In this document: piece after piece, positions 627 to 64,000 of the stretch
Layout of the letters: each line of letters begins with the position of its first letter
How positions within the stretch are numbered: position 1 is the stretch's first letter
Source: Candidatus Adlerbacteria bacterium RIFCSPHIGHO2_12_FULL_53_18
Lineage (GTDB): Bacteria > Patescibacteriota > Minisyncoccia > Phycocordibacterales > SBAW01
Assembly (NCBI GenBank): GCA_001775475.1
Contig: MEWW01000010.1
Location: forward strand, 5,143 to 69,142
Length of the DNA: 64,000 nucleotides
Reading direction: 5' to 3'
The notes under the pieces: model-generated
Databases searched by the model: none
The model's input: only the letters and a program-made list of their open reading frames with translations
Told to the model about the DNA's origin: nothing
Translations under genes and position numbers: made by a program

Positions 627-1511
627 GTGAAGCATGCAAAAATCGTTGCAGTGGTACTCGTGCCGGCAAGTTTCTTCTTTGCCGCCTATCATGCATGGGG
701 ATTTTTTATCGCAGCCTCGCAGCCGCTTGTCGTTGAGCCGGTATATGCCGAACAACTAGCTGCATCCGCGACAGCAGAGCCGGAATTTGTTGACACGACC
801 AACCCCAACGATCTTCTTCCCGACCTCCTGCCTCTGCCGCCACGCGATTTAAAGGTAGAGAAAATTGGGAACCAAGTTCTGCTCTACTTCAGCACAACCT
901 ACTACAACCAGGGGCGGGGCACCTTGGAGCTGCGTGCAGACCCTGCGACTGCCGGCCTTCGCGAGACAATAGAGCGCAATGTGTTGCAGCGCGTGTATCA
1001 AGCTGACGGTGCACATCGAGACAAACCGGTAGGCACATTTTTGTGGCACCAGGAACATCTGCACTACCACTACACTGACTTTATTACGTATGACCTTGAG
1101 CCCGTTGGTGCCCCAAAAAACGAGGAGCTTTCCGGCAACTTGGTCAAATCGACCTTTTGCCTGCGCGATGTATCACGAGTGTTTCTTGATCTCGCAAGCT
1201 CTTCTCCTGAAGCGACTTATAAGATCTGCGGCAAGGAGTTGCAAGGGGTTTCTGTCGGCTGGGGCGACACCTACTACTGGAACTACCCTGACCAAGCACT
1301 CGATATCACGGGCCTGGAGTCCGGCACCTACCGTCTAACTTTTGTCGCTAACCCCGAAAAGCGGCTCGAAGAAATACGCTACGACAACAACATCTCAAGT
1401 GCACTCTTCCGCCTCAACATGGATACCGCTACGGTTGATGTGCTTGAAGAGAATCCTAAGGAAACTCCGGAGGTCGAGCATATACATCTAGATTCGCCCT
1501 TTGGTATGTAA
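627..1511 (+). CDS. secreted lysyl oxidase (LOX)-like copper amine oxidase domain protein
   Basis: N-terminal TM/signal. C-terminal block aligns with the LOX catalytic domain: WHQEHLHYH (LOX copper site WxWHxCHxHYH), YDL, KSTFCLRDVS (LOX KASFCLEDTS, LTQ lysine), QGVSVGWGDTYY (LOX QGLSPGCYDTYG, LTQ tyrosine), DITGLESGTYRL..VANP...L.E..YDNN (LOX DITDVKPGNYIL.VSVNP). Confidence 0.55.
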   Translation: MKHAKIVAVVLVPASFFFAAYHAWGFFIAASQPLVVEPVYAEQLAASATAEPEFVDTTNPNDLLPDLLPLPPRDLKVEKIGNQVLLYFSTTYYNQGRGTLELRADPATAGLRETIERNVLQRVYQADGAHRDKPVGTFLWHQEHLHYHYTDFITYDLEPVGAPKNEELSGNLVKSTFCLRDVSRVFLDLASSSPEATYKICGKELQGVSVGWGDTYYWNYPDQALDITGLESGTYRLTFVANPEKRLEEIRYDNNISSALFRLNMDTATVDVLEENPKETPEVEHIHLDSPFGM

Positions 1512-1516
1512 TAAAT

Positions 1517-2659
1517 ATGAAATATTTTGCCTGGTCGCTCACTATTGTTGCACTGCTTGGAGTTCTGCTTCTTGTGGTCATCCCCGTGCCGCAGGAGCCA
1601 GCAGAACAGCACGTGGCAACAACAACACCAGCAACGAGCAACACTGCGGAGCCGCAGCTCTACACGGTAGTGGCTGAGGGCCTAGAAATTCCTTGGGACA
1701 TCGCATTTCTCCCGAACGGCTCACTGCTTGTCACAGAGCGCACGGGCCATGTAATTGAAATTCTGCAGGATGGCACCAGGCGCGAAATACCTGTACCCGG
1801 GGTTCGCCAAAGCGGCCTGCCTGCGCAGGCAGGCGAAGGTGGGCTTCTCGGTCTCACTCTGCACCCTGACTTTCAGGTCAATAACTACGTGTATCTCTAC
1901 ATGAGCGCTCCGGGAACTACGGAGCAGACGCAAAACCGCGTCGTGCGTTTTATCTACAAAAACGGTGTGCTGTCTGAAAACAGAGTAATTATCGAAAACA
2001 TCCCTGGGGCCATATATCACGACGGCGGCCGGATGGAGTTTGGACCGGACGACCGCCTTTATATAACGACCGGGGATGCAACGACTCCAGCAATAGCACA
2101 AAACCTACAGTCACTCGGCGGAAAGATACTGCGTTTGCACGACGACGGCGTAGTGCCGAGCGACAACCCCTTCGGTACTGCCGTATACTCCTATGGCCAT
2201 CGCAACCCGCAAGGCTTAGCATGGGATAGCGCCGGCCGGCTCTGGGAAACCGAGCACGGGCGCTCGGGTGTGCAGAGCGGTCTCGATGAAATCAATTTGA
2301 TAGAAAAAGGAAAGAACTACGGCTGGCCGGAGAACGAGGGCGACAAAGTTGCCATAGGTACCATGGCGCCAGTGCGTCACTCGGGTGCAAGCGACACCTG
2401 GGCACCTGCGAGTCTCGCCTACTTAAACGGCAAACTCTTTTTTGGCGGGTTGCGCGGCGAAGCGCTCTACGAAGCAGTACTTGATGGCACCCGCGTTGCA
2501 GAACTTAAAGAGCATTTTAAAGGCCAATTTGGCCGCATCCGCACGGTGCGCGTTGGCCCTGACGGCATGCTCTACCTCACCACAAGCAACACTGACGGCC
2601 GTGGCTCCCCTGCCGCAGGCGACGACAAAATAATCCGAGTCAATCCGGAACTGCTGTAA
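1517..2659 (+). CDS. PQQ-dependent soluble sugar (aldose/sorbosone) dehydrogenase family protein, N-terminal TM anchor
   Basis: Beta-propeller motifs typical of the YliI/sGDH family: EIPWDIAFLPNGSLLVTER, GGLLGLTLHPDF, HDGGRMEFGPDDRLYITTGD, YSYGHRNPQGLAWD, KNYGWPE. Confidence 0.8.
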   Translation: MKYFAWSLTIVALLGVLLLVVIPVPQEPAEQHVATTTPATSNTAEPQLYTVVAEGLEIPWDIAFLPNGSLLVTERTGHVIEILQDGTRREIPVPGVRQSGLPAQAGEGGLLGLTLHPDFQVNNYVYLYMSAPGTTEQTQNRVVRFIYKNGVLSENRVIIENIPGAIYHDGGRMEFGPDDRLYITTGDATTPAIAQNLQSLGGKILRLHDDGVVPSDNPFGTAVYSYGHRNPQGLAWDSAGRLWETEHGRSGVQSGLDEINLIEKGKNYGWPENEGDKVAIGTMAPVRHSGASDTWAPASLAYLNGKLFFGGLRGEALYEAVLDGTRVAELKEHFKGQFGRIRTVRVGPDGMLYLTTSNTDGRGSPAAGDDKIIRVNPELL

Positions 2660-9212: not shown

Positions 9213-10070
9213 ATGCCGGCCGTTATACGACAACTGACAAGAAAAGAGTTTCCGGCTCTGCTGAAAGAGATTCCCGACTGCCCGCCGCAGCTTTTCATAC
9301 GAGGCGAGATGCCGCCGTCCGGCTTTGTGTATCTTTGTGTGGTCGGCTCGCGTGCCACGACCCCCTACGGGCGGCGCACCTGTGCTTCGCTTATAAGCGG
9401 CTTGGCGCGATTTCCTATTGCAATAATTTCCGGCATGGCGCTCGGTATTGATGCCGAGGCGCACAAAGCGGCACTTGATGTTGGGCTTCCTACCGTTGCC
9501 GTGCTGCCTTCCTCCTGCGACGAGGAGTCGCTGTATCCGCCGAGCAACAAAGCGCTTGCTCAGCGCATCTTAGCGCGCGGGGGCGCTTTGGTCAGTGAGC
9601 GGAAGAGCCCGTGGAAGGCGCATCCTCACGACTTTGCCGCGCGCAACCGGATTATGGCCGGGATGAGCAAGGTTATTCTTATTATCGAAGCGGGAGAAAA
9701 GTCGGGCACGCTTATTACCGCGCGGCTTGCGCTCGACTACAACCGCGAGGTCCTCTGTGTCCCACATGAGTTGGGCCGCGAGAGCGGCAAAGGAGCAAAC
9801 CAACTTATCCGCGAAGGGGCGACACTGGTGTGCAACTCCGCTGATGTCGCGGAAGCGCTTGGGTTTAAAGAAAAGCCGGAACAAGAAACGCTCCCCACCG
9901 ACCTAACGCCGCAGGAAGAAAAGATTCTACAGGCCTTAACCGGCTCCGCCCACAAAGACGACCTCCTGCTTGCCACTAAACTCTCAGCGCAAGAAGCAAA
10001 TATTGCCCTCTCTTCGCTCCTCATCCGCGGGCTTATTGTTGAACGGTTGGGTAAAGTGGAGCGCGTGTAG
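9213..10070 (+). CDS. dprA: DNA processing protein DprA (Smf)
   Basis: Rossmann-like DprA core: GSRATTPYG, GMALGIDAEAHKAAL, GTLITARLALDYNREV. A C-terminal winged-helix-like tail follows. Confidence 0.8.
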   Translation: MPAVIRQLTRKEFPALLKEIPDCPPQLFIRGEMPPSGFVYLCVVGSRATTPYGRRTCASLISGLARFPIAIISGMALGIDAEAHKAALDVGLPTVAVLPSSCDEESLYPPSNKALAQRILARGGALVSERKSPWKAHPHDFAARNRIMAGMSKVILIIEAGEKSGTLITARLALDYNREVLCVPHELGRESGKGANQLIREGATLVCNSADVAEALGFKEKPEQETLPTDLTPQEEKILQALTGSAHKDDLLLATKLSAQEANIALSSLLIRGLIVERLGKVERV

Positions 10071-19682: not shown

Positions 19683-20900
19683 TTATTGCAAAATTATACT
19701 CCTCGCGTTTGCCACGTTAGGTACGTACGAACGGGTTTCGGCGTAGCCCGAGTTTGCCGTACACTGCCACCAGGTTTGGCCCGGACAGTCGAAGCTTCGG
19801 TTATTTGCTCTGGGGCCTCCATTGTACGCTGCTATCGTGTTGGTACTTCTGCCAAACTGGCCTTCCATTTGAGTTAAATATTTAACGCCAAGCGTCATGT
19901 TGTAGACAGGATCTTTCAAACGAGCGGTGATTTCCGAGTTCGACAGCCCCGCAAGAGACGAGTCGAGCCCCCTTGCAGTGTCAGGGCATACCTGCATTAA
20001 CCCGACACAGCGGGCAGGGCTCACCGCCCCCGCGTTGCCGTTAGACTCAATCGCCATCACTGCTTGTGCCATTTCACAGTCACTGTAACCCTGCTGTCTG
20101 CAAATGGTCTGCAGTTGTGCGGCATACTGGTTAGTGCCTTGTATTTTTGCCTCAAGCTGGGCGACAGAGAAGATGCGTGCGTTCGGGTCGGTGGTGAGCG
20201 GCCCGGTTAAGCCTGCGGTCGTGGACACGATAGTGGGTTCGACTTGGTCGCAAGCTTCTTGAAATTGACATGAAGAATTAACACAGACTTGCTGCATCTG
20301 GTTGTACTTGTATCCATTGGGACATGTGACTTGTATGACACTGCCTGGTGACGACCCTGAGGGGGCCGAAATGGCTTTAATTGGAAGAGGGGTGGTTGGA
20401 ATAACCTCGCCAAGAAGATCACTCAAACTTGCGTTTCTTAAGCGCTCTTCCCTGCTGCACTGGAGTTCGTTCCAGCTACCTCCTATCCAAAAGTCCTGGT
20501 CAAACACGACGCTCAGCAGAGTCTGCACAACAAGGTAGGCTGAAATCGCGATTAAAAAGCCGATGAGTACACTTTTAAATATCTTATGTGCCTTGCTTAT
20601 CTGAGTGGGGTTTGAGCCTCCGGTCACATAGAGAAACCCGGCATAGGCAAACATTGCCGCCGCGACTGAGACTGAAAGTCCGATAAGGAAGTTGATAATG
20701 TTCTGCATCAACTGCCCCAGGCTGCATAGATCGCAACCTGTAGTTGTTCTTATGTATTCGCTGTAAGCGGGAGTATTCTGTTCTGGTATCGGCCCTTCCC
20801 ACACTCCACAAGGGACTAACCCCTGCGCGTCCGCAATCAGAGGAATGGAGAGCCACAACAATGCAGCTACAAAAAAGAGCAAAGCACGCTGCTTTTGCAT
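19683..20900 (-). CDS. fusion protein: VirB2/TrbC-like pilin module (signal peptide + two TM helices) + Cys-rich linker + family-1 lytic transglycosylase (SLT) domain
   Basis: Signal peptide ending ADAQG. TM1 INFLIGLSVSVAAAMFAYAGFLYV, short loop, TM2 SVLIGFLIAISAYLVVQTLL, the same layout as the 32.2-33.7 kb pilin paralogs. C-terminal SLT motifs AIESNGNAGAVSPARCVGLMQV (catalytic Glu; ES..S.AxGLMQ) and AAYNGGP. Confidence 0.6.
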   Translation of the reverse strand: MQKQRALLFFVAALLWLSIPLIADAQGLVPCGVWEGPIPEQNTPAYSEYIRTTTGCDLCSLGQLMQNIINFLIGLSVSVAAAMFAYAGFLYVTGGSNPTQISKAHKIFKSVLIGFLIAISAYLVVQTLLSVVFDQDFWIGGSWNELQCSREERLRNASLSDLLGEVIPTTPLPIKAISAPSGSSPGSVIQVTCPNGYKYNQMQQVCVNSSCQFQEACDQVEPTIVSTTAGLTGPLTTDPNARIFSVAQLEAKIQGTNQYAAQLQTICRQQGYSDCEMAQAVMAIESNGNAGAVSPARCVGLMQVCPDTARGLDSSLAGLSNSEITARLKDPVYNMTLGVKYLTQMEGQFGRSTNTIAAYNGGPRANNRSFDCPGQTWWQCTANSGYAETRSYVPNVANARSIILQ

Positions 20901-30140: not shown

Positions 30141-30215
30141 TGGAGGCCACGGCGGGAATCGCACCCGCGTATAAGGGATTTGCAGTCCCTTGCCTTACTA
30201 CTTGGCGACGTGGCC
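30141..30215 (-). tRNA. tRNA-Cys (anticodon GCA), CCA encoded
   Basis: GGCCACG-TC-GCC AAGTAGTA AGGC-A-AGGGA CTGCAAA TCCCT-TATAC-GCGGG TGCGATT CCCGC-CGTGGCC-T-CCA. The T-loop TGCGATT is atypical. Confidence 0.6.
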
Positions 30216-30255
30216 GTGTTTTTAAATCTAGCATTTGGTGGTAAAAATAGGAAAC

Positions 30256-30337
30256 GCCCGGGTGGCGGAATCGGTATACGCGCTCGACTTAAGATCGAGT
30301 TCCGTAAGGAATGTGAGTTCGAGTCTCACCCCGGGCA
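30256..30337 (+). tRNA. tRNA-Leu (anticodon TAA)
   Basis: GCCCGGG...CGACTTAAGATCG, long variable arm, GAGTTCGAGTCTCAC, CCCGGGC-A; 82 nt. Confidence 0.8.
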
Positions 30338-30376
30338 CTATCAAAAAAAGAAAATTTGTTGTATTTTATTTGTATT

Positions 30377-30449
30377 CCGCCCATAGCTCAGTTGGTAGAG
30401 CAGCTCCCTCTTAAGGAGACGGTCCGAGGTTCGAATCCTCGTGGGCGGA
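30377..30449 (+). tRNA. tRNA-Lys (anticodon CTT)
   Basis: CCGCCCA-TA-GCTC AGTTGGTA GAGC-A-GCTCC CTCTTAA GGAGA-CGGTC-CGAGG TTCGAAT CCTCG-TGGGCGG-A. It has C1:G72 and a G27.A43 mismatch. Confidence 0.7.
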
Positions 30450-30459
30450 CCCGCAAAAT

Positions 30460-30541
30460 GCTGGGGTGGCGGAATTGGTATACGCGCCAGTCTTAGGAAC
30501 TGGTGCCGCAAGGCTTGGAGGTTCGAGTCCTCTCCCCAGCA
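30460..30541 (+). tRNA. tRNA-Leu (anticodon TAG)
   Basis: GCTGGGG...CCAGT CTTAGGA ACTGG, variable arm TGCCGCAAGGCT, TGGAGGTTCGAGTCCTCT, CCCCAGC-A; 82 nt. Confidence 0.8.
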
Positions 30542-30672
30542 CAAAAGTCCTCATTTCACCCTTGTTTTGCAAGGTTTTTTTGCTTGACAAAACCGTATAA
30601 AATGATATAATAACAAACGGACTAGCGGCCTCTGTAGCCGCGTGAAAAATCTGAACCTTGAGAGGTAAGCAA

Positions 30673-31683
30673 ATGTCAGACACTACAATCGTCCCTCCTG
30701 CGACGGAGCCCCCTGCGTGGGTGCAGATGGAACAACAAGTCGAAGAAGCTACCAGGAGCAAGTTGAGTCTTCTTGCAGGAATACTTATCTCGTATTTGCT
30801 GGTGGCTCCGTTTGTCGACTTCCTGCTAGTCAACTGGTGGTTCTTCAGACTTCTCGGTCTGGACGACGCCTTCACAGCCCACATCGTCTTCAACTTGACG
30901 GTGGGGGGTCTCTATCTCGTGTGGGGGCTCGAAGACATCCCAGTCGGCTCTCGCGGAGCCCTTCTTCTGCTTGGGCAGCGTTTACTACGTAGCGGGAGTG
31001 GCTTGAGTGAAGGGTATCAGTGGATACCCAAGCCATTCATGTCGATTCGACCTGTGGACTGCAAACCTAAGTCAGTCGACATCAGCGATGAGGAAGGAGC
31101 CTATGCCAAAGACGGTCCGCTGATGGCTACCAACGGCTTCCAGCGGTACCGTGTGTTTGACCCCTATCGATTCCTCGGGGTTGACGACGTTATTCCCTCA
31201 CTGGAACGTCTGGCTCGCCAATCAGTTCGTATCGAGATGAAGGGAAAGAAAGCCCTGGAAGCTCGCAATGCTGACAAAAAAGACTTCTCGGATCAAGTCG
31301 CAACAACACTCCATGCTCAACTTGATGCCAACGGCAATCCTAACGGGGTCCGCTGGGGCATCAGAACAGGCGTCACAGTCATCGACGACATCTGGGCAGT
31401 CGACCCGAAACTCGAAGCCGCCTGGACGGCAAAAGTTCGAGAAGAAGCGGAAGGAAAAGCGGAGAAGGTCCAGACTAAACGTCGTCTCGAGCAGGTCGAC
31501 ATGTACATCGACAAGAAAGTAGATCCTGACTTGGCGGTGGTGGCGGCTCAAACTGATGTCGAGAAGCCGGGTGCCCGGGTCAACACAGTCAGCATTCCGG
31601 GCCTCTCCAAGGCCTTTGAAGCCATAGCCAAGGCCCTTGAGAACGGTCTCAAGAACTTGGGTACAGGGAGGGGTGAGCGATGA
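30673..31683 (+). CDS. SPFH/band-7 (stomatin/HflK-like) membrane protein
   Basis: RBS GAGGTAA then ATG 30673. Two N-terminal TM helices. SPFH core YRVFDPYRFLGVDDVIPSLERLARQSVRIEMKGKKALEAR ... RWGIRTGVTVIDDIWAVDP. C-terminal coiled coil (REEAEGKAEKVQTKRRLEQ). Confidence 0.6.
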   Translation: MSDTTIVPPATEPPAWVQMEQQVEEATRSKLSLLAGILISYLLVAPFVDFLLVNWWFFRLLGLDDAFTAHIVFNLTVGGLYLVWGLEDIPVGSRGALLLLGQRLLRSGSGLSEGYQWIPKPFMSIRPVDCKPKSVDISDEEGAYAKDGPLMATNGFQRYRVFDPYRFLGVDDVIPSLERLARQSVRIEMKGKKALEARNADKKDFSDQVATTLHAQLDANGNPNGVRWGIRTGVTVIDDIWAVDPKLEAAWTAKVREEAEGKAEKVQTKRRLEQVDMYIDKKVDPDLAVVAAQTDVEKPGARVNTVSIPGLSKAFEAIAKALENGLKNLGTGRGER

Positions 31684-32153
31684 ACAAATGGCGCATTGGC
31701 GGTTGGATAGCTGGCATCGGAATAATGATGCTTGTTGTCGTCAGCATCATTCACTGGGTTGGTGGCCCTCCAGCTACGCAATTGGCCGGCACTCCACCCG
31801 CCGGCCAGTACACCTCGTCGCCCCCTGTGGCAAAGGCGAACATGGTGGATCTCGACTTAGAGTGCTACCGGCCATGGCACGATCAGCCTATCAGTGGGGA
31901 CCCCAAGAAACCCACTCGCATTAACCCCAGAGGCAACTGCGACTGGACGGTCAAGACGCCTGGCAAGTGTGTAATGGCCAAGCGTACTGACCGGGTCGGA
32001 GACAATGCGTGGTATGGCCCTATCTGCGACTACGAGATTGTCGGTGTGGAGCGAGTTGAAGCTCCGCTTGATGTGGAGTGGATCTACGCAGCAGACGAAA
32101 AAGGAAAGCCCGTTGAAGGCTTTACTGCTCTGGCACGGCTTCGGTCGAACTGA
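31680..32153 (+). CDS. membrane-anchored Cys-rich extracytoplasmic protein, translationally coupled to the SPFH gene (ATGA overlap)
   Basis: N-terminal TM (IAGIGIMMLVVVSIIHW), then a 6-Cys domain (ECYRPW...GNCDW...GKCVM...GPICDY). No family recognised; it does not look like a canonical NfeD. Confidence 0.4.
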   Translation: MNKWRIGGWIAGIGIMMLVVVSIIHWVGGPPATQLAGTPPAGQYTSSPPVAKANMVDLDLECYRPWHDQPISGDPKKPTRINPRGNCDWTVKTPGKCVMAKRTDRVGDNAWYGPICDYEIVGVERVEAPLDVEWIYAADEKGKPVEGFTALARLRSN

Positions 32154-32214
32154 TCTTTACGAAATAATGGGCGCGACGGGTTTCTCAACCCGCCGCGCTC
32201 TTCTTCTTTTATAT

Positions 32215-32490
32215 TTATCGTATGCCCTTTAACTCTACGTTCGCTCCCACGGCGTTGATTATGATAAGCACTATTGCAGAGGCTATAACCATGACGAACA
32301 TCCCAACCATACCCCAGAGCATGTGTTTTTTACCACGCTCCCTGGCATCGGTTTCGGCATTAAGGCCGTAGAGAAACTCCACCAGCCCAAAGACAAATAT
32401 CAAAAGCCCGACGGCAAAAACCAGAAGCATTATCGGGTCTATGACGTAGTCGACAACGAGCCTGCGGAGATCTACGAGATCATCCCTCAT
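32215..32490 (-). CDS. VirB2/TrbC-like pilin-family small membrane protein (paralog 1, 91 aa)
   Basis: Short N-terminal segment, TM1 IMLLVFAVGLLIFVFGLVEFLYGL, charged loop NAETDARERGKKHM, TM2 LWGMVGMFVMVIASAIVLIIINAV. Confidence 0.5.
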   Translation of the reverse strand: MRDDLVDLRRLVVDYVIDPIMLLVFAVGLLIFVFGLVEFLYGLNAETDARERGKKHMLWGMVGMFVMVIASAIVLIIINAVGANVELKGIR

Positions 32491-32498
32491 GAGAGCTG

Positions 32499-32861
32499 TT
32501 ATCTGGGTGTATTAGGTGCCTGTAGATTTTGTTCAGCGTCCCGGTTGGATTGGATATTAAGCACGCCTTGTGCAAGGCGGATAATGCCCCACACCGACAC
32601 CATCACGAAGAGGCCTACCAAGCCGGCAATCATAATCTTCTTACCCGTCTCTGCCTCCGGCTTGCGTATGTACTGAACCAAACCCCAAAAAAATACTATG
32701 AGACCGAATGCTATGAGGATAGGAATGACATTATCGAGAAGATCTCGCGTACCCCCCACAAGAGACTGAAAGTAGCCAAAATTGATTGCCCCTGTCCCGC
32801 CTTGTGCAGATGCTAGTAAAGGGAACAGGCCGAGTGAACCAGCGATTATGGTCTTTTTCAT
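32499..32861 (-). CDS. VirB2/TrbC-like pilin-family small membrane protein (paralog 2; start at the internal ATG; the ORF track extends to 32909)
   Basis: Signal peptide MKKTIIAGSLGLFPLLASAQG, TM1 VIPILIAFGLIVFFWGLVQYI, loop RKPEAETGKKIM, TM2 IAGLVGLFVMVSVWGIIRLA. Confidence 0.5.
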   Translation of the reverse strand: MKKTIIAGSLGLFPLLASAQGGTGAINFGYFQSLVGGTRDLLDNVIPILIAFGLIVFFWGLVQYIRKPEAETGKKIMIAGLVGLFVMVSVWGIIRLAQGVLNIQSNRDAEQNLQAPNTPR

Positions 32862-32932
32862 AAAAAATTTATTATATATCCACTTTAACAGCTGGGGAGT
32901 CGAACTCAAGACTGCAGTGTGGATAGTCGCAT

Positions 32933-33229
32933 CTACACTTCGAGTATCTCCACGGTGTTGCCGCGCTCCTCTTCGTAGCGCTCGTTGGTGTAAGGTACTA
33001 GCTGCTTAAATATGTTGATGATCCCCCAGATAGAAAAAAGGATAAAAAGTGCCAAAAGGCCCCAACCCATAGCCCTGCGCTCCTCGCTTTTGCCGTGTGC
33101 GTCGCCCGCCTTGGCTATGTAGCGCACTACGATTATAAGAAAAAGGACCAGCACCACCCCTCCCAAAGTCGAGACGGTGAGGTCAATAAAATCGACTATC
33201 GGGTATACAATATCGTCCCTCAAATTCAT
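32933..33229 (-). CDS. VirB2/TrbC-like pilin-family small membrane protein (paralog 3, 98 aa)
   Basis: TM1 LGGVVLVLFLIIVVRYIA, loop KAGDAHGKSEERRAM, TM2 GWGLLALFILFSIWGIINIF. Acidic C-terminal tail. Confidence 0.5.
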   Translation of the reverse strand: MNLRDDIVYPIVDFIDLTVSTLGGVVLVLFLIIVVRYIAKAGDAHGKSEERRAMGWGLLALFILFSIWGIINIFKQLVPYTNERYEEERGNTVEILEV

Positions 33230-33654
33230 ATGTCGATGTTAAGCCGCGCCAGCGTCCCCACGATTACCTCAGTGATAAGCCATGCGCCAAAAAAGACGGC
33301 AATACCCACCACGGTGTAAAGCAAATTGGTCTTAGCTTTGTCAAGTTCGGTAGGATTGCCGCGCGCCCAGACAAAACGAAAGCCTGCGATAACGATAAAA
33401 AGTACCGCTACAGGGAGACCTATGATAAATGTACCATCGAGTATGGCTTTAATAAGTTCAGGAAATGAATCAATATCTCCGAGAGGGTTGGAGAGTTTTA
33501 CAAAATTGCTATTACTACTGCCGCCACCTATTCCCCCGTCACTCCCACCCCCTAACCCTCCATCCGACCCTCCACCGATGGCCGCTATAGATACGAAAGG
33601 AAAGCAGACAAAAGTAACGAAGAGAAAAACAAAAAAAATATATTTTCCTTTCAT
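33226..33654 (-). CDS. VirB2/TrbC-like pilin-family small membrane protein (paralog 4) with a GGGSDGG tandem-repeat linker
   Basis: Signal peptide/TM MKGKYIFFVFLFVTFVCFPFVSIAAIGGG, (GGGSDGG)x3 repeat, then TM1 FIIGLPVAVLFIVIAGFRFVW, loop ARGNPTELDKAKTN, TM2 LLYTVVGIAVFFGAWLITEVIV. Overlaps the upstream gene by 4 nt. Confidence 0.5.
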   Translation of the reverse strand: MKGKYIFFVFLFVTFVCFPFVSIAAIGGGSDGGLGGGSDGGIGGGSSNSNFVKLSNPLGDIDSFPELIKAILDGTFIIGLPVAVLFIVIAGFRFVWARGNPTELDKAKTNLLYTVVGIAVFFGAWLITEVIVGTLARLNIDI

Positions 33655-33657
33655 ACT

Positions 33658-34947
33658 TTATCTCCCTACAAGTTGCCGCAGCCCCTGGGCGGCGGTGTTG
33701 ACAGCGTTTGCGGGCTCGGCACCGCCGCTTATCACCGATTCTATCATGGCCTGAAAGATGTCATCGGTGGCCTCTGGCTCTGGGTCGAGCCAGCCGCGTG
33801 CGATAAGCGCTGCCCCGGCAAACACGCCTGCCGCGGCATTTGCCGAGGTATCAAACACAACATCGCGGCGCACGGGCGGCAGCCCTGTTGCCTGTGCCAC
33901 CAGTGCGATAGTCTCTGCACTCACAAGCTTTTCCGCAATGATTGCCGCGCCTTCGATATTGCGGGCGGAGCGCGGGATAGCGAGCCCTGTCATCCGACCG
34001 AAGGTGGCACTTGAGAGTGCGCCTTCAACCTGCGGCACCTGCGCTACGGAAAAGCGCAGGTTGGGGTTGCGTGCCGCGATAGCGTTAAACTCGCTTACAA
34101 AACCGAAGTACAAGGCCACGTCGCCGGCAACAAAAGCGTTGGTGGAAAGAGGGAGGCCCCTGTTCCACGAGTAGGTGGTTTTAGTGGGGTTGGCAAAGTC
34201 GGTATAAAACCGCAGCGCCGAAGGCGCATCAGCCGAGCCGCCGCCTGTTGCAGAGCCTAAAACCGGCAAGAGTGCGCCGTCCTCTCCGCGCACGACTACC
34301 CGGTCGCCCGCCTGCATAAAGAGAGTTGAGAGTATTTCCTTAGCGTGCGCGACGTTGCTCCACGTGCCAAGTGCCACGGCGCTCTTGGTTATGTTGGAGC
34401 GGTCGAGCGCGGTCACCTTGGGCGCCACAGCGAGGAGCTCGTTCCAGTAGCGCGGCGGCTCGCCCAACCCAGCAGTCGCAAGCAAGTCGCGGTTCCAGTA
34501 CATAACCAGGGGGTCGATAGTAAATGGCAGAGCAAGCTCACCCTGCGTGGTTAAAAACAGCTCGCTCTCGTCGACAAATGAGTTAAGGAAGACGTTTTGC
34601 GACACGAGCCGATACGGGATCGTAATGATTTTGTCGGAAAATGAGTGGAGCTTGTCGCTATCTATCAAAAAAAGGTCGGGCCCCGTGCCTGCGGCCATGG
34701 CGTTGAGAAGCTCGGTGTCGTAGGTGGCCGGGTTTTTCTCTGTATAGGAAACATCCTGAAATGTTTCGTCGGCGTTTCGGAGCGAGGTCAACACATTGTT
34801 CATCATCGTCCCGTCGAGCGTACCCCAGATAACCACCTGTCCGGTGCCGCCACCGCCAAGCACACCACCAAAGGAAGCAAACACGCCAACGCCTATGAGT
34901 ATAAGTGCGGCGCAGACGCCAAGAACGATGATCTGAAAGGTCGACAT
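33658..34947 (-). CDS. membrane-anchored extracellular solute-binding protein (ABC-type SBP family 1-like), orphan
   Basis: N-terminal TM, Gly-rich linker, then an SBP fold pattern (VVIWGTLDG..., AAGTGPDLFLIDSDKL, LPFTIDPLVMYWNRDLL). There are no permease or ATPase genes nearby. Confidence 0.5.
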   Translation of the reverse strand: MSTFQIIVLGVCAALILIGVGVFASFGGVLGGGGTGQVVIWGTLDGTMMNNVLTSLRNADETFQDVSYTEKNPATYDTELLNAMAAGTGPDLFLIDSDKLHSFSDKIITIPYRLVSQNVFLNSFVDESELFLTTQGELALPFTIDPLVMYWNRDLLATAGLGEPPRYWNELLAVAPKVTALDRSNITKSAVALGTWSNVAHAKEILSTLFMQAGDRVVVRGEDGALLPVLGSATGGGSADAPSALRFYTDFANPTKTTYSWNRGLPLSTNAFVAGDVALYFGFVSEFNAIAARNPNLRFSVAQVPQVEGALSSATFGRMTGLAIPRSARNIEGAAIIAEKLVSAETIALVAQATGLPPVRRDVVFDTSANAAAGVFAGAALIARGWLDPEPEATDDIFQAMIESVISGGAEPANAVNTAAQGLRQLVGR

Positions 34948-34972
34948 CTCGTTTGTTTAATAATGCGCTTGA

Positions 34973-35569
34973 TTAAGACTTTTTCCTAACGACAAATCCC
35001 CAATGGTAGAGGCCTGCCGGCACCTCTTCGACATAGGCAAAGCCTTGAGTTTCAAAAAGTGCGCGTGCGGCGGCCGCAGTTATTACGTGGTCTGTATGCG
35101 GCCCTAAGCCCCCAAAGGAGCCCGCCCAGTCCACCACAAGCGCGCGGCCGCCGCGCTTTAAGACCCGTTTTATCTCCGCGACACACTCACCCCGGTGCTC
35201 AAGCCCAAAAAGCAGGTTTGCTGCAACACAGAAGTCAAAATGGTTCTCCGGCAGGTTGCTGCCCCCCACCGCCTCGACATCGCCGTGGATAACCTCAACG
35301 TTGTGCAGGCCCTCTGCGAGGGCTAGCGTTTTAATCCGCGGCAGAAGCTCCCGATGGATATCAACCGCCCACACCACTCCTCCGTCACCAACCTCGCGCG
35401 CTAAGGCGCGCGTAAAAAAGCCCGACCCAGCGCCAAAGTCGGCCACAACCATACCCTCGTGCACCTTGGCACTAAGCAGTGTCTTATGCGGGTTGAGGAA
35501 AGAGCTCTCGCTCATCGTTTGTATTATAACGCCCTTTTTGTTACCGTGACTGCGGACGAACACGGCCAT
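34973..35569 (-). CDS. class I SAM-dependent methyltransferase
   Basis: Motif I VADFGAGSGFFTRALA, motif II VWAVDI, post-I acidic residue. 198 aa. Confidence 0.65.
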   Translation of the reverse strand: MAVFVRSHGNKKGVIIQTMSESSFLNPHKTLLSAKVHEGMVVADFGAGSGFFTRALAREVGDGGVVWAVDIHRELLPRIKTLALAEGLHNVEVIHGDVEAVGGSNLPENHFDFCVAANLLFGLEHRGECVAEIKRVLKRGGRALVVDWAGSFGGLGPHTDHVITAAAARALFETQGFAYVEEVPAGLYHWGFVVRKKS

Positions 35570-35606
35570 ACATAATGTGTGGCTATCTGAACCGGAGGAA
35601 AGTTAC

Positions 35607-37025
35607 ATGGAGATGGAACTTAACGCACTGACCGCACTAAGCCCGGTGGACGGGAGGTATCGGCGCCACATCGTAGACCTGGTACCTCACATGAGCGAAT
35701 ATGGCCTTATCCGGGCGCGCCTCGAGGTACTTATCGAGTACCTGATAACGTTTTCTGAACATCGTGATACACCGCTGCGAGCATTTACGCCGACGGAGTA
35801 CAAGATGCTCAACGAGTTCAAGAAGGTGTCGGTTGAAAATGCCGCCATCATCAATAAAATCGAAACGCAGGGATATAAGGACATCAAGGCAACCAACCAC
35901 GATGTGGTCGCGGCGATCAAGTATCTGCGCATGGTGCTTCAAGGCACTTCGCTTGGCGATATCGTCGAGTGGGTGCACTTTGGCCGTACCTCGGAGGACG
36001 TTAATAACCTTGCCTACGCGCTCATGCTGCGGCGGGCAGCAAGCGTCCTCTTGGCAGAGGTTATTGCGGTGCGGGATGCACTGCGAAGCTTTGCCCTGCA
36101 GTATGCCGCACTTCCGATGCTTGGGCGTACTCACGGCCAACCCGCAACCCCAACGACACTCGGCAAAGAATTCAACGTGTTTGCCGAGCGCCTTACGAAG
36201 CACATCTTCAAGCTGCGGCAATTCGAACTCTTGGTGAAATGTAATGGGGCGAGCGGCAACTACAGTGCCGACGTGAAAGCGCTCCCCAAGGTCGAGTGGA
36301 TCAGCTTTACCTACGACTTTGTTCTGCGACTCAACAAAATATCTGCAGAAGAGAGATTGCTGCCCTTCGTCGTGAACGAGGTGACAACGCAAATCGAGCC
36401 CCATGACACCTACGCCGAGTTCTTCGGCATCTTCATGCGGATCAACACAATCCTGATCGGACTTTCACAGGATGTATGGCGTTACATCAGCGACGACTGG
36501 TTGATGCAAAAAACAGTCGAGGGCGAAGTTGGCTCCTCGGCCATGCCGCAGAAGGTCAACCCGATCGACGACGAGAACGCTGAAGGAAACTTGGGGTTGT
36601 CGAACGCGATGTTGGAATTTTTCTGTAGAAAGCTCCCCATCTCGCGCCTGCAGCGGGATCTCTCGGACTCCACGGTTGAGCGTGCGTTTGGGATGGCGCT
36701 CGGACACTCCCTCATCGGTTACAAGGCCCTGCTGAAGGGGCTTGGCAAGATCTCGGCCGACCAGGCCAAGATAATCACTGAACTTGAAAATCGTCCTGAA
36801 GTGCTCGCGGAGGCCATACAAACCATATTACGTCGCGAAGGCGTAAGCGGTGGATATGACCTCCTCAAGGAGGAAACTCGAGGCAAACCGGTGTCTCTTG
36901 CGAGTTTGCACAAAAGGATCGACTCGCTTGATATCCCGGAGGCCGTAAAGGAGGAGTTGCGAGCCTTAAAGCCCTCGAACTTTACGGGGCTTGCCGTGGC
37001 GCTGGCGGCCAGGTTCACCGACTAA
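35607..37025 (+). CDS. purB: adenylosuccinate lyase
   Basis: GGAGG RBS 8 nt upstream of ATG 35607. LSPVDGRY, HFGRTSEDVNN, fumarate-lyase signature GSSAMPQKVNPID. The ORF-track start 35577 is a GTG extension. Confidence 0.85.
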   Translation: MEMELNALTALSPVDGRYRRHIVDLVPHMSEYGLIRARLEVLIEYLITFSEHRDTPLRAFTPTEYKMLNEFKKVSVENAAIINKIETQGYKDIKATNHDVVAAIKYLRMVLQGTSLGDIVEWVHFGRTSEDVNNLAYALMLRRAASVLLAEVIAVRDALRSFALQYAALPMLGRTHGQPATPTTLGKEFNVFAERLTKHIFKLRQFELLVKCNGASGNYSADVKALPKVEWISFTYDFVLRLNKISAEERLLPFVVNEVTTQIEPHDTYAEFFGIFMRINTILIGLSQDVWRYISDDWLMQKTVEGEVGSSAMPQKVNPIDDENAEGNLGLSNAMLEFFCRKLPISRLQRDLSDSTVERAFGMALGHSLIGYKALLKGLGKISADQAKIITELENRPEVLAEAIQTILRREGVSGGYDLLKEETRGKPVSLASLHKRIDSLDIPEAVKEELRALKPSNFTGLAVALAARFTD

Positions 37026-61463: not shown

Positions 61464-61979
61464 TTACCAATCTGCAGCCCCTTGCGAATAGACTGAACAA
61501 AACGTGTGTTGTGATTCGGTTGTCCGGCGAGGGTCGGCAAAATTCTGGCCTAGCTTGCATTTAGTCCCTACTTCGGCGCTCCAGTCGGTGGAGAGTTTGT
61601 AATTGGTCCCATTAGATCTATAAATGTAGCCCTTGAAAGATCCCCCGCTGACGCAGCCCGATGGGTCTGTGGGAAGAACTGCGATATACGCTGGAGCCAG
61701 GTTAGGGACATAGCCATTCGCGCCGCTTGTGTCGCGTGGTGTCGGATCGGCGCCGTTGGTACAGACCGTCCACCAACTGCCGCCCGTTGATGGGTAGGAA
61801 CCATTGTCGTTATAGTAGAGCTTCAAGCCAATATCCACGTTAATCAAATCTGAGTATCGTTTTGCGTCTCGAGACTCTTTGCGAGAGCTACCGAGACCAG
61901 CGACGACAATGGTTGAAAGAATGCCGATTATCCCAACCACAACCATAAGCTCAACTAGCGTAAAGCCGCGTACGTGCAT
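61464..61979 (-). CDS. type IV pilin / pseudopilin (class III signal peptide)
   Basis: Prepilin peptidase site MHVRG/FTLVELMVVVGIIGILSTIVVAG. C-terminal globular domain with Cys pairs. 171 aa. Confidence 0.7.
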   Translation of the reverse strand: MHVRGFTLVELMVVVGIIGILSTIVVAGLGSSRKESRDAKRYSDLINVDIGLKLYYNDNGSYPSTGGSWWTVCTNGADPTPRDTSGANGYVPNLAPAYIAVLPTDPSGCVSGGSFKGYIYRSNGTNYKLSTDWSAEVGTKCKLGQNFADPRRTTESQHTFCSVYSQGAADW

Positions 61980-61984
61980 GTAAT

Positions 61985-64000
61985 TTACTGTATCACCGCA
62001 GCAACATCTGTTTCAACCTGAGATGAAGGAGAACTTTCTTCTTCGCTCTCCTCCACTGTCGACTCTTCCTCATTCGTCTCTTCTGGTGCCGGTGCTTCCT
62101 CTACAGGCTCACTTGGGGTTGACGGAGCAACATCTTCTACAGTCGGTTCTTCTATTTCATCTGCTTCTTCCGGCGCTCCGGCGGGCTGAGCCTCTGGCGG
62201 CGGTTCCGATTCTGCTTGCGGTGAGCTTGTCGAATCCGGCGCGGGAGAGGGCGCGGGAGCTGGTGCGGGCGTACTCGAGCCACCCGCAGCCGCAGATTGG
62301 GATCGCAAATCGAGAAGCTGCTGCAGTTCGGCTTCGTTTACGCAGGTTGCGCCGACGCACAACTCGTCGGTGCGCACACGCTTTGCAAAGAAATCGGCGA
62401 TGCCGTTGCCAGCGTCGGCGAACCATTGTGTGAGGCGGGTGAAGAGGGAAGAAAAGAAGCGGGACGGGAATGAACCTTGCTCGGTTGCTGGCGTCGTCGT
62501 CGCGAGGTCTTCGAATTTAAGGTTGAGTTCTTGGATCGCCTTGGCAAGGAGCGCGGTGAGGCGCTCGTACTTTACGCCTTGGAGCTCTCCTGTTTCGTTA
62601 TCGTAGCGGGCAAGAAGCGGACTGACGGCGACGATTTCCTCGGCGATAAAGCCGAGGTCATGCTCGCCTCCGAAATCCTCTCTCCAATCGAACTCGCGAG
62701 GAGTTAGCGCAAGGACCGCATCGAGACCGAGAGAAATGTCCTCCACGTTCTCTTTGTACTGCGCAAGCGACGTGCAGTCGCCGTACAAAGACCCACCCGC
62801 GCCGTCCCAGCAGAGGGGGTCAGCTCCGACAGCTGTGTTGGTGAGCACATACAGAGTGCCCCCGACCGTAAGAAGTCCTTCGGTCGGCGTTGTGTCATTG
62901 ATGCCGACGTTGCCGGTGGAGTTGATGGTCACCTTTTCCGTGACCCCGCTTATGTCCCCTGACCCCGTGTAGAGCGAGATGCCGGACGCGCCTGCGACGA
63001 TCGCGTTGCCGTTCAAGACCGCGAACTCCGCGTGCGTCCCGCTTCGTGTGATGCGGATACGGCTTGTGGCAGCTGTCGTGCCGTCGACATGGAGAGCAAC
63101 TGCTGGCGAGGTGGTGCCGATACCGACGTTGCCTGAATAGTCAATCGTCATCGCAGTGTTGGTGATACCACTGGAGTATAGATTTGAAGTGCCGAAGTGG
63201 AGATAACTACCGCTTGAGGTGACTTGAGATCCGATGCGAGCTTTCGGAATCCCATGAGAACCAGCGGATACGGCACTGCGGCTTGCAAAGTCGAGCACTG
63301 TGTACTGGTTGGAGCCCGTATCCGCTTGAATTCTCAAGTGTCCGTCAGTCGTGCCGGTGAAAGTTGAGAGAGCGGTCCCCTCGATATTAAGTTTAGTTTC
63401 CGGCGTCGTGGTGCCGATGCCGACGTTGCCGGCGTTGTCTATTCTCATGCGCTCGAGCGCTGCACCACCAGCGTTAGGGCGCGTGATGAATTGCAGGTTA
63501 CCACCCCACGTCCCGGTCTTTGTGCCAGTTATTAAAGCCGCGCGTTCTCCGGTGTTATTAGAATCAGCAAATGCAATCCCATTATTAAACGCGTCGAAGT
63601 CCGTACCGATGGAATGCGTACTACCTGAAAATAATAGGTCGCCAAGATCTATCTGTAGTTTTGCCTTTGGACTCGTCGTCCCGATGCCGACGTTGCCGTC
63701 GTCTATGACGAGCCATGTATTTGCATCACCGCTTCCTTCACCGAATGCGATGGTGTTGTCGGAAGCGGTGGAAGCGCCGTGACGAAACTCGATCCACGAT
63801 TGTGCGGAACTATTATCGTCGATTGACGCTTCAAGTCGAAGTGCGCTGTTGTGCCATGAATTGTCGCGCGTCGCATGTGCTCGCGTAACGATGTCGAAGT
63901 AATTGTTATTGGCGCCATCGACAAAATTGTCTCTGAAACGCGCAAGGAGCGTCTCGCTATCATCGGCAAGCGCAAGCGCGTTTGTTCCATGAACATGGAG
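61985..64000 (-). CDS. large secreted tail-fibre-like protein with repeated (I/V)DxxGNVGIGTTSP units, a C-terminal S74-type intramolecular chaperone domain and an acidic Pro-rich tail; the N-terminus lies beyond the window edge
   Basis: The ORF track starts at Met 63448, but the same frame is open upstream to position 64000 (...LHVHGTNALALADDSETLLARFRDNFVDGANNNYFD...ALERMRIDNAGNVGIGTTTP). Three GNVGIGTT(S/T)P repeats. Chaperone-domain pattern CWDGAGGSLYGDCTSLAQYKENVEDISLGLDAVLALTPREFDWRE...GFIAEEIVAVSPLLARY...KYERLTALLAKAIQEL. Confidence 0.55.
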   Translation of the reverse strand, partial: LHVHGTNALALADDSETLLARFRDNFVDGANNNYFDIVTRAHATRDNSWHNSALRLEASIDDNSSAQSWIEFRHGASTASDNTIAFGEGSGDANTWLVIDDGNVGIGTTSPKAKLQIDLGDLLFSGSTHSIGTDFDAFNNGIAFADSNNTGERAALITGTKTGTWGGNLQFITRPNAGGAALERMRIDNAGNVGIGTTTPETKLNIEGTALSTFTGTTDGHLRIQADTGSNQYTVLDFASRSAVSAGSHGIPKARIGSQVTSSGSYLHFGTSNLYSSGITNTAMTIDYSGNVGIGTTSPAVALHVDGTTAATSRIRITRSGTHAEFAVLNGNAIVAGASGISLYTGSGDISGVTEKVTINSTGNVGINDTTPTEGLLTVGGTLYVLTNTAVGADPLCWDGAGGSLYGDCTSLAQYKENVEDISLGLDAVLALTPREFDWREDFGGEHDLGFIAEEIVAVSPLLARYDNETGELQGVKYERLTALLAKAIQELNLKFEDLATTTPATEQGSFPSRFFSSLFTRLTQWFADAGNGIADFFAKRVRTDELCVGATCVNEAELQQLLDLRSQSAAAGGSSTPAPAPAPSPAPDSTSSPQAESEPPPEAQPAGAPEEADEIEEPTVEDVAPSTPSEPVEEAPAPEETNEEESTVEESEEESSPSSQVETDVAAVIQ

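Follow-up and report, generated by a model that had tools for sequence, protein, structure and literature searches.

A gene for a solute-binding protein heads a conserved operon of putative VirB2/TrbC-related pilins in Paceibacteria

We analyzed a 64-kb stretch of DNA, which we call the window, from Candidatus Adlerbacteria RIFCSPHIGHO2_12_FULL_53_18, an ultrasmall groundwater bacterium with a 540-kb draft assembly (GCA_001775475.1). The window contains an operon in which a gene for a membrane-anchored solute-binding protein (SBP) is followed by four small genes, p4, p3, p2, and p1. From their sequences, these four genes are predicted to encode members of PF18895, a patescibacterial pilin family related to VirB2/TrbC. 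The operon has the order (methyltransferase)-SBP-p4-p3-p2-p1; it is chromosomal and vertically inherited within the class Paceibacteria (Parcubacteria). The main new observation is that the coupling of the SBP to the pilins is fixed across the class, which appears to be unreported in the literature that we searched. As to function, we infer, with a probability of roughly 0.55, that the operon encodes a pilus or conduit for interaction with a host, and that the SBP is the extracellular partner of this structure.

All of the genes of the operon are on the minus strand. The preliminary description of this DNA had reported four small minus-strand genes and an SBP gene, and its coordinates hold: this is a true tandem array. 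The SBP (429 amino acids; 33658 to 34947) belongs to family 1 and is MalE/UgpB-like. The start codon of p4 (142 amino acids; 33226 to 33654) lies 3 nt past the SBP's stop codon, and the start of p3 (98 amino acids; 32933 to 33229) overlaps the stop of p4 by 4 nt (ATGA). The open reading frame (ORF) of p2 could reach 32909 (136 amino acids) from a TTG codon, but gene callers select the ATG at 32861, giving a protein of 120 amino acids (32499 to 32861). After an 8-nt gap comes p1 (91 amino acids; 32215 to 32490), the last gene of the operon. A terminator-like hairpin (32171 to 32198, minus strand), with a 12-bp stem that includes 9 G-C pairs, lies 17 nt past the stop of p1, between convergent genes. 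It is the sole strong hairpin within 31900 to 35800, where the total of terminator-like sites is about what is expected from shuffled sequence. At the other end, a class I S-adenosylmethionine (SAM)-dependent methyltransferase of 198 amino acids (34973 to 35569; Pfam Methyltransf_11/25/31) is encoded on the same strand, 25 nt upstream of the SBP. The operon may begin with this gene, which is a candidate for a role in the system.

To find relatives of the operon, we used an alignment of the SBP to scan a single genome from each GTDB species, which gave 80 loci. We then called ORFs in these loci and searched them with an iterated hidden Markov model (HMM) of the pilins. We counted linkage in the 61 loci that have at least 3 kb of sequence downstream of the SBP. 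In all 61 of these, the SBP is directly followed, on the same strand, by 3 to 8 pilin-like genes: there are four in 38 loci, five in 16, six in 3, seven in 2, eight in 1, and three in 1. The median gap between the SBP's stop and the first pilin's start is 2 nt, and many of the junctions are 4-nt overlaps. The lineages with the operon include Adler-, Nomura-, Kaiser-, Zambryski-, Azam-, Brenner-, and Moraniibacteria. The SBP had been described as an orphan; instead, it is the array's most constant partner.

As a control for frozen gene order, we binned the loci by the identity of their SBP to that of the window. At 50% identity or above, the pilins follow the SBP in 51 of 51 loci, the methyltransferase is just upstream in 53 of 53, GyrA is in the upstream flank in 41 of 42, and IF-2 is in the downstream flank in 29 of 37. 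At 36 to 49% identity, the corresponding counts are 10/10 for the pilins, 8/10 for the methyltransferase, 7/8 for GyrA, and 4/8 for IF-2. At 35% identity or less, the methyltransferase is retained in 5 of 8 loci, GyrA in just 1 of 5, and IF-2 in none of 4, while the pilins are present in 6 of 6. Thus, the link between the SBP and the pilins outlasts the flanking gene order.

A separate observation concerns the five-gene arrays. At loci L019, L022, L023, L025, L029, L030, L031, and L035, an extra pilin-like ORF of 71 to 103 amino acids lies between the SBP and the ortholog of p4 (at about 9300 to 9560 in most of these loci). In the window, the 3-nt gap leaves no room for such an ORF.

The SBP itself is well conserved. 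It matches SBP_bac_8 (68 bits) and SBP_bac_1 (59 bits) in Pfam. An AlphaFold2 (AF2) model made from 24 sequences (pLDDT 76.6) has an N-terminal helix (residues 3 to 27), a low-confidence Gly-rich linker, and a two-lobed domain. The best matches to this model in Foldseek are oligosaccharide SBPs (5ci5, 7bvt, MalE1/2, 1eu8, and UgpB; E values of 1e-18 to 1e-21), and a profile search against PDB sequences agrees with the MalE-like placement. The SBP has more than 868 homologues, and many proteins from Paceibacterota are 56 to 60% identical to it. Across 76 species, 34 positions are at least 95% identical; many of these are aromatic or polar, and they include W41, Y68, D91, W168, N198, Y248, Y259, W261, and N262. 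We also considered whether the SBP might be a lipoprotein, but Cys12 is not conserved (it is replaced by Phe in 76% of sequences), so the SBP is anchored by its transmembrane (TM) helix and is not a lipoprotein. We dropped the idea that this anchor is exceptionally conserved, as its conservation is 0.55 versus 0.59 for the globular part.

The claim that this is a membrane-anchored family-1 SBP with no ATP-binding cassette (ABC) permease or ATPase nearby is borne out in the window by Pfam, the AF2 model, and motif searches. There is no ABC permease or ATPase among the annotated genes of the window. A search by regular expression only, with no positive control, did not detect the Walker A...LSGGQ motif of ABC ATPases in the window or in any of the 80 loci, which extend up to 8 kb to either side. 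So, relative to the class of SBP-dependent ABC importers, the protein belongs to a recognized SBP family but a cognate permease or ATPase is not nearby. The SBP shares a fold and an N-terminal membrane anchor with the SBPs of the MalEFGK and UgpBAEC importers; unlike them, it has pilins as its operon partners. A second SBP (SBP_bac_5) is encoded at L090:2321-3964 (plus strand), followed by PGI and RNase J, and that locus also has no ABC-ATPase motif. SBP genes that stand alone may occur more widely in Paceibacteria genomes.

These observations bear on what we consider the best-surviving alternative, that the SBP is a bystander: it would be the ordinary receptor of an ABC importer whose permease and ATPase are encoded elsewhere, and its adjacency to the pilins would reflect the frozen gene order of small genomes. 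GyrA, the methyltransferase, and IF-2 are also syntenic in close relatives, but the adjacency of SBP and pilins holds at 61 of 61 loci, with near-zero or overlapping junctions, and is kept where flanking synteny is lost (6/6, versus 1/5 for GyrA and 0/4 for IF-2). The SBP does have a standard MalE-like fold, and the family 5 SBP beside PGI and RNase J in L090 suggests that scattered SBP genes may be normal; however, we found no ABC-ATPase motif in the window or the 80 loci, using the regular expression only. On balance, the bystander explanation is possible but unlikely.

We next consider the identity of the four small proteins. The gathering thresholds in Pfam are 26.6 bits for PF18895 (T4SS_pilin) and 27.9 bits for PF04956 (TrbC/VirB2). 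With 45.2 bits, p4 is above the cut-off for PF18895, and it scores 25.5 bits against PF04956 (E = 1.6e-5), which is under the threshold. The other three proteins are tied to PF18895 by E values around 1e-5 (2.6e-5 for p1, 6.6e-5 for p2, and 2.3e-5 for p3), by positional orthologs that do pass the threshold, and by the iterated HMM. Across 26 loci of relatives, PF18895 matches 107 of 111 array members, while PF04956 matches 33 of 111 at E ≤ 0.01 (best E = 6.6e-9). In NCBIfam, there are sub-threshold matches to a model for a "pilin-like conjugal transfer protein" from an integrative and conjugative element (ICE) of Mycoplasma; for example, p3 scores 30.7 bits against the Mbov_0395 pilin-like model, which has a cut-off of 40. 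Close homologues are already named "pilin" or "TrbC/VirB2 family protein" at NCBI. The VirB2/TrbC identity that was originally proposed is therefore supported, with PF18895 matches for all four proteins, three of them just below the threshold, and a sub-threshold profile match to TrbC for p4.

Each of the four proteins has two hydrophobic helices with a short basic loop between them, which is a membrane hairpin. They had all been described as having a hydrophobic or signal segment at the N terminus. As assessed by eye and from hydropathy only, p4 (..SIA/AIGGG) and p2 (..LLASA/QG) do have signal-peptide-like N termini, and the reported AIGGG and ASAQG motifs are present in the translations; p1 and p3 instead have a short acidic stretch that leads directly into the first TM helix, with no signal peptide. 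In p4, the signal peptide is followed by a low-complexity linker of Gly, Ser, and Asp, an NPLG motif, and the two-helix hairpin. The linker does contain the repeat that was reported, but as about 2.5 copies of [IL]GGGSDGG rather than three copies of GGGSDGG. In p2, the hairpin and a polar C-terminal tail follow the signal peptide. A single-sequence AF2 model of p4 (pLDDT 60) has helices at 3-25, 64-99, and 101-140, corresponding to a signal helix and a helical hairpin, and an alignment of p4 orthologs (A4) has invariant N56 and P57, P81, and A97-R98-G99. Thus p4 and p2 have the layout of VirB2-type pilins (a putative cleavable signal peptide, two helices, and a positive loop), and p1 and p3 share the hairpin and the basic loop without the signal peptide. 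Compared to canonical VirB2, TrbC, and TraA proteins of the T-pilus and F-pilus, the likeness lies in these features and in family-level similarity to TrbC. The differences are that there is no adjacent virB operon, that p1 and p3 lack signal peptides, that the array has four members and would be heteromeric, that there is no significant match to solved pilins, and that enzymes for cyclization or acetylation of the pilins were not identified. Also, unlike the diderm bearers of type IV secretion systems (T4SS), the cell that the window comes from is probably monoderm-like.

The pilin module also occurs fused to enzymes. As reported in the preliminary description, a 405-amino-acid protein (19683 to 20900, minus strand) carries the module: after a signal peptide, it has a PF18895 hairpin at residues 61-128 (31.2 bits, above the cut-off) and a C-terminal SLT domain, a lytic transglycosylase, at 270-370 (69.2 bits). 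Judging from these domains, it is in effect a fusion of a VirB2-like and a VirB1-like protein. Its homologues combine the pilin module with SLT, with SLT_3 (lysozyme-like), or with CHAP. The position of the fusion gene, between ClpB and MiaA, is syntenic in relatives as part of the housekeeping gene order of Adlerbacteria and is not beside VirB4. We dropped the idea that neighbors of the fusion gene (a protein of 412 amino acids and a secreted one of 230 amino acids) have roles in a T4SS, as they have no match in Pfam; the 412-amino-acid protein appears ATP-grasp-like by eye only. A larger fusion of 829 amino acids is found within the SBP-linked array of a metagenome-assembled genome from Moraniibacteria (L090:10626-13112, plus strand; JAVEXR010000012.1). 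It has a subtilase domain (65-324), a PF18895 hairpin (525-588), and an SLT domain (670-773); the predicted enzymes that flank the hairpin are consistent with both of its ends being outside the cell. Other enlarged proteins with the pilin module are at L090:9387-10535 (383 amino acids), L089:11587-12651 (355 amino acids), and L078:9280-10023 (248 amino acids). The 405-amino-acid protein and its relatives resemble VirB1-type hydrolases (VirB1 and the bifunctional homologues from monoderms) in having SLT, SLT_3, or CHAP domains. They differ in being fused to a VirB2-like hairpin, and in L090 also to a subtilase; the fusion is not discussed in the literature that we consulted.

Using Pfam, we found no VirB4, VirD4, VirB6, or relaxase in the 64-kb window, which agrees with the earlier statement that VirB4, VirD4, and relaxase are absent from it. 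The locus is thus not co-located with a VirB4-containing T4SS, and no T4SS ATPase adjoins the distant arrays that we examined. However, six other genomes with the operon (loci L024, L065, L073, L074, L078, and L082) are all scored "Yes" for VirB4 in Table S1 of PMC12102498, so it is plausible that the T4SS is encoded elsewhere. The system is not a conjugation apparatus. This had been suggested at the outset, and it fits with the lack of machinery nearby and with the host-contact role that has been proposed for patescibacterial T4SS (PMC12102498, PMC10633639, PMC11665869). In a more distant relative (L093:1-9511; GCA_964486505.1, CAZAMC010000003.1), a pilin-SLT fusion lies downstream of large unannotated proteins of 1286, 447, 463, and 420 amino acids. 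The same stretch encodes a 199-amino-acid "TraC-like" protein (PF26593) upstream of the fusion and a RadA-like ATPase after it. This may be a divergent T4SS-type cluster.

The preliminary description took a multi-paralog pilin array with an SBP to be functionally undescribed, but multi-paralog pilin arrays are a known kind. Quinonero-Coronel et al. (2025; PMC12102498) used PF18895 and PF04956 to survey 3,035 genomes of Patescibacteria and cataloged 441 arrays of 2 to 11 pilin genes in 383 assemblies. Identity within those arrays averages 25%, relaxases are mostly absent, and a non-conjugative role was suggested. The array in the window falls within their definition (at least two PF18895 or PF04956 genes, in tandem or with one gene between them, with low mutual identity), with four genes that are 20-43% identical to each other, and like their arrays it is chromosomal, has no relaxase, and is presumed to be non-conjugative. 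However, that survey used closeness to virB4 to score pilins, its arrays are mainly from Microgenomatia and Saccharimonadia, and it does not mention an SBP partner; the array in the window begins with an SBP, lies far from virB4, keeps a fixed set of four paralogs, and is conserved across Paceibacteria. In Southlakia epibionticum, a series of pilins in the T4SS cluster is essential (Wang et al., 2023; PMC10633639). According to the tables of that study, six consecutive PF18895 genes (SEML1_0014-0019, in ML1) lie beside genes for VirB4, PrgI, a VirB6-like protein, and lysozyme. The two arrays are alike in being consecutive PF18895 genes. Those of ML1 encode proteins of about 100 to 185 amino acids, some of which match TrbC, and all are essential for epibiotic growth; the ML1 cluster includes no coupling protein or relaxase. 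In contrast to the window, which has an SBP at the head of the array and no VirB4 or VirB6 within about 30 kb, the ML1 array is adjacent and divergent to the VirB4, PrgI, VirB6-like, and lysozyme genes and has no SBP. In cultured Patescibacteria, Kuroda et al. (2024; PMC10936435) found that T4SS pilins rank with those genes of unknown function that are expressed most strongly. As far as we found, it is the SBP-led, virB4-distal operon of fixed composition that is apparently undescribed.

If the operon encodes a host-interaction pilus or conduit, it might work as follows. The hairpins would insert into the membrane with both ends outside. VirB4/TrsD/VirB3/VirB6 machinery encoded elsewhere in the genome would then extract and polymerize them, as is established for VirB2-type pilins. 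This would yield a heteromeric filament on the cell surface, or an envelope conduit, for contact with and exploitation of a host cell. The SBP would act with the filament outside the cell, either by recognizing a glycan on the host's surface or, at the base of the structure, by capturing a ligand that comes from the host. Through the pilin modules that are fused to cell wall hydrolases (and, in one relative from Moraniibacteria, to a protease), this structure would also bear lytic enzymes.

Several results weigh against this proposal. First, no T4SS ATPase lies within 8 kb of the arrays (or, in the window, within about 30 kb), and the source assembly itself is scored "No" for VirB4 in Table S1 of PMC12102498, although this may be due to the incompleteness of the draft. 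Second, p1, p2, and p3 score 24.7, 23.3, and 24.8 bits against PF18895 (E values of about 2e-5 to 7e-5), just under the threshold. Third, we found no usable tie to the solved VirB2/TraA pilins, so the claim of homology rests on the Pfam profiles. Foldseek gave only non-significant matches to the AF2 model of p4, with the T-pilus VirB2 (8exh_A) in seventh place (E = 3.7); this comparison is uninformative because a helical hairpin is too generic a shape. HMMs from the pilin alignments A3 and A4 gave nothing significant among PDB sequences: there were only chance matches to TM helices (of G-protein-coupled receptors) and a match to TraM of pKM101 (E = 0.17). When A4 was compared with VirB2 of the Agrobacterium Ti plasmid by hhalign, the E value was 0.023 and the probability was 2% (the comparison sequence is 99% identical to Ti-plasmid virB2 by tblastn). 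Fourth, an ABC permease may be encoded elsewhere in the genome, and the wide synteny in close relatives (GyrA ... methyltransferase-SBP-pilins ... IF-2) weakens adjacency as evidence there. Finally, a pilus in any Paceibacteria is so far putative, as is contact between the SBP and the pilins.

Alternatively, the PF18895 hairpins may form no pilus at all, and instead make up a T4SS-independent membrane complex with the SBP: a channel or anchor for SBP-dependent uptake or signaling in place of an ABC permease. The operon stands alone, far from T4SS genes, and no VirB4 was detected in the source assembly; but VirB4 is present in other operon-bearing genomes, and members of the same family lie beside virB4 in Saccharimonadia and Microgenomatia. 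Two of the four proteins have no signal peptide, enzymes are attached to the membrane through the pilin module, and the TM helix of the SBP is conserved about as much as the globular part (0.55 versus 0.59), all of which would suit such a complex. Against it, the family is homologous to TrbC/VirB2, and no energy-coupling component is apparent. We consider a complex of this kind to be distinctly unlikely.

A bolder idea is that the SBP and the four-pilin filament together form a single nutrient-scavenging organelle that replaces the ABC permease. The SBP would capture a host-derived oligosaccharide, cell wall fragment, or glycerophospho-headgroup ligand that is freed by the pilin-tethered hydrolases, and would pass it on for import to a pilus or conduit of the VirB2 type that contains lipid. 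This is a speculative reading to which we give a still smaller probability. If true, it would be a T4SS-derived uptake device in organisms that are unable to make their own lipids or cell wall precursors.

The composition of the array itself argues against a fourth possibility, that it is a rapidly diversifying antigenic or host-range cassette with a variable copy number. The preliminary description leaned this way in taking the strong divergence of the paralogs as a sign of diversifying selection, and the idea was also raised as a speculation in PMC12102498. In the window, the paralogs are indeed just 20-43% identical to each other (p1 and p2, for instance, are 43% identical over 54 amino acids). 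However, when we took 41 four-gene arrays and asked which of the window's paralogs was the best match for each gene, the best match was the paralog at the same position for 41/41 genes at p4, 29/41 at p3, 40/41 at p2, and 40/41 at p1. The median identity to positional orthologs is 46% for p4, 38% for p3, 46% for p2, and 47% for p1, as compared to 55% for the SBPs in the same loci, so the pilins fall only modestly short of the SBP in conservation. From these comparisons, the four paralogs are ancient and non-redundant and have been kept in the fixed order p4-p3-p2-p1. Array size does range from 3 to 8 across the class, but in 38 of 61 loci the array consists of exactly four genes, which keep the same order and have position-specific orthologs. 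Similarly, the low-complexity N-terminal linkers and the C-terminal tails are variable, but conservation is centered on the hairpin and its loop. This pattern fits four non-redundant subunits of one putative structure, rather than diversifying selection or turnover in copy number, and a cassette is quite improbable.

The pilin genes differ from their surroundings in GC content (0.46-0.50, versus 0.55-0.59 in the neighboring genes). A regional dip had been described; the dip is real, but only the four pilin genes show it. For p1 and p3, most of it comes from a low GC content at second codon positions, because of the hydrophobic residues that these genes encode. At the third codon position, GC is 0.43 in p4 and 0.50 in p2, versus 0.59-0.71 in neighboring genes, and is not lowered in p1 or p3; expression-linked codon usage and relaxed constraint are possibilities for p4 and p2. 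The last alternative, that the array is what is left of a conjugative element that was acquired horizontally and inserted by a tRNA cluster, was hinted at by the lower GC and by four tRNAs (30141-30542, as previously reported, and 1.7 kb from the array), but it is effectively refuted: the GC dip is confined to four hydrophobic ORFs and is partly a matter of second-codon-position composition; we found no integrase, relaxase, coupling protein, or VirB4 in the window; and the locus lies in the same housekeeping setting in every relative that we examined, so that the whole neighborhood is syntenic across the class, and we rejected an island or ICE origin.

The rest of the 64-kb window is mostly housekeeping, including IF-2, ClpB, GyrA, TopA, aminoacyl-tRNA synthetases, RelA/SpoT, and DprA; FtsA/Z were recognized from N-terminal sequence only. 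Convergent to the operon is a pair of genes on the plus strand (30658 to 32153) for a membrane protein of 341 amino acids (30658-31683) and a membrane-anchored partner of 157 amino acids. They are possible members of the system. The first had been called an SPFH gene, but it has no match to Band_7 (PF01145) at E ≤ 1. It is weakly similar to its positional counterpart in L007 (28% identity over 167 amino acids, E = 6e-5), which does match Band_7, and the counterpart in L009 has a weak match to Band_7, so a divergent SPFH/Band_7 protein is possible on sequence grounds. The partner had been called Cys-rich, but it has just 4 Cys in its 157 residues. Convergent pairs of membrane proteins of similar size (about 350-425 and 160-285 amino acids) are found just past the last pilin in L071-L084, which include distant lineages; here the likeness is in size and position.

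Two other gene pairs in the window are worth recording. At 61464-61979 (minus strand) is a type IV pilin with the N-terminal methylation motif (PF07963), and it adjoins a 487-amino-acid protein with a Peptidase_S74 domain (61985-63448, minus strand). Peptidase_S74, or "chaperone of endosialidase", is an intramolecular chaperone like those of tail spikes, and the pair may be a fiber or adhesin associated with type IV pili. At 627-1511 (plus strand) is a lysyl-oxidase-like protein (PF01186, 58.6 bits) with an N-terminal TM helix, directly upstream of a homologue of glucose/sorbosone dehydrogenase (GSDH; 1517-2659, plus strand). This pair is unusual for a reduced genome from the candidate phyla radiation (CPR). 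Among the relatives, the FtsH gene at L089:12905-16126 (plus strand) contains an intein with a LAGLIDADG domain. The GyrA ORFs of L072 and L074 are 1227-1230 amino acids long, about 400 more than usual, and may also contain inteins. Finally, L007:13463-14113, between the Band_7 gene and rbfA, is an ORF of 216 amino acids with a faint match to LAGLIDADG_3.

The pilin arrays of Patescibacteria are essential in the one species that is genetically tractable. The fixed make-up of four paralogs argues for a heteromeric machine over antigenic variation, and the fusions of pilins to hydrolases and to a protease point to lytic enzymes being carried on the structure. Because three of the four members are below the threshold in Pfam, pilin arrays of Paceibacteria may be under-counted when only above-threshold, virB4-proximal matches are scored. 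The invariant SBP partner offers a handle that can be purified, and its ligand could reveal what these cells recognize on, or take from, their hosts.

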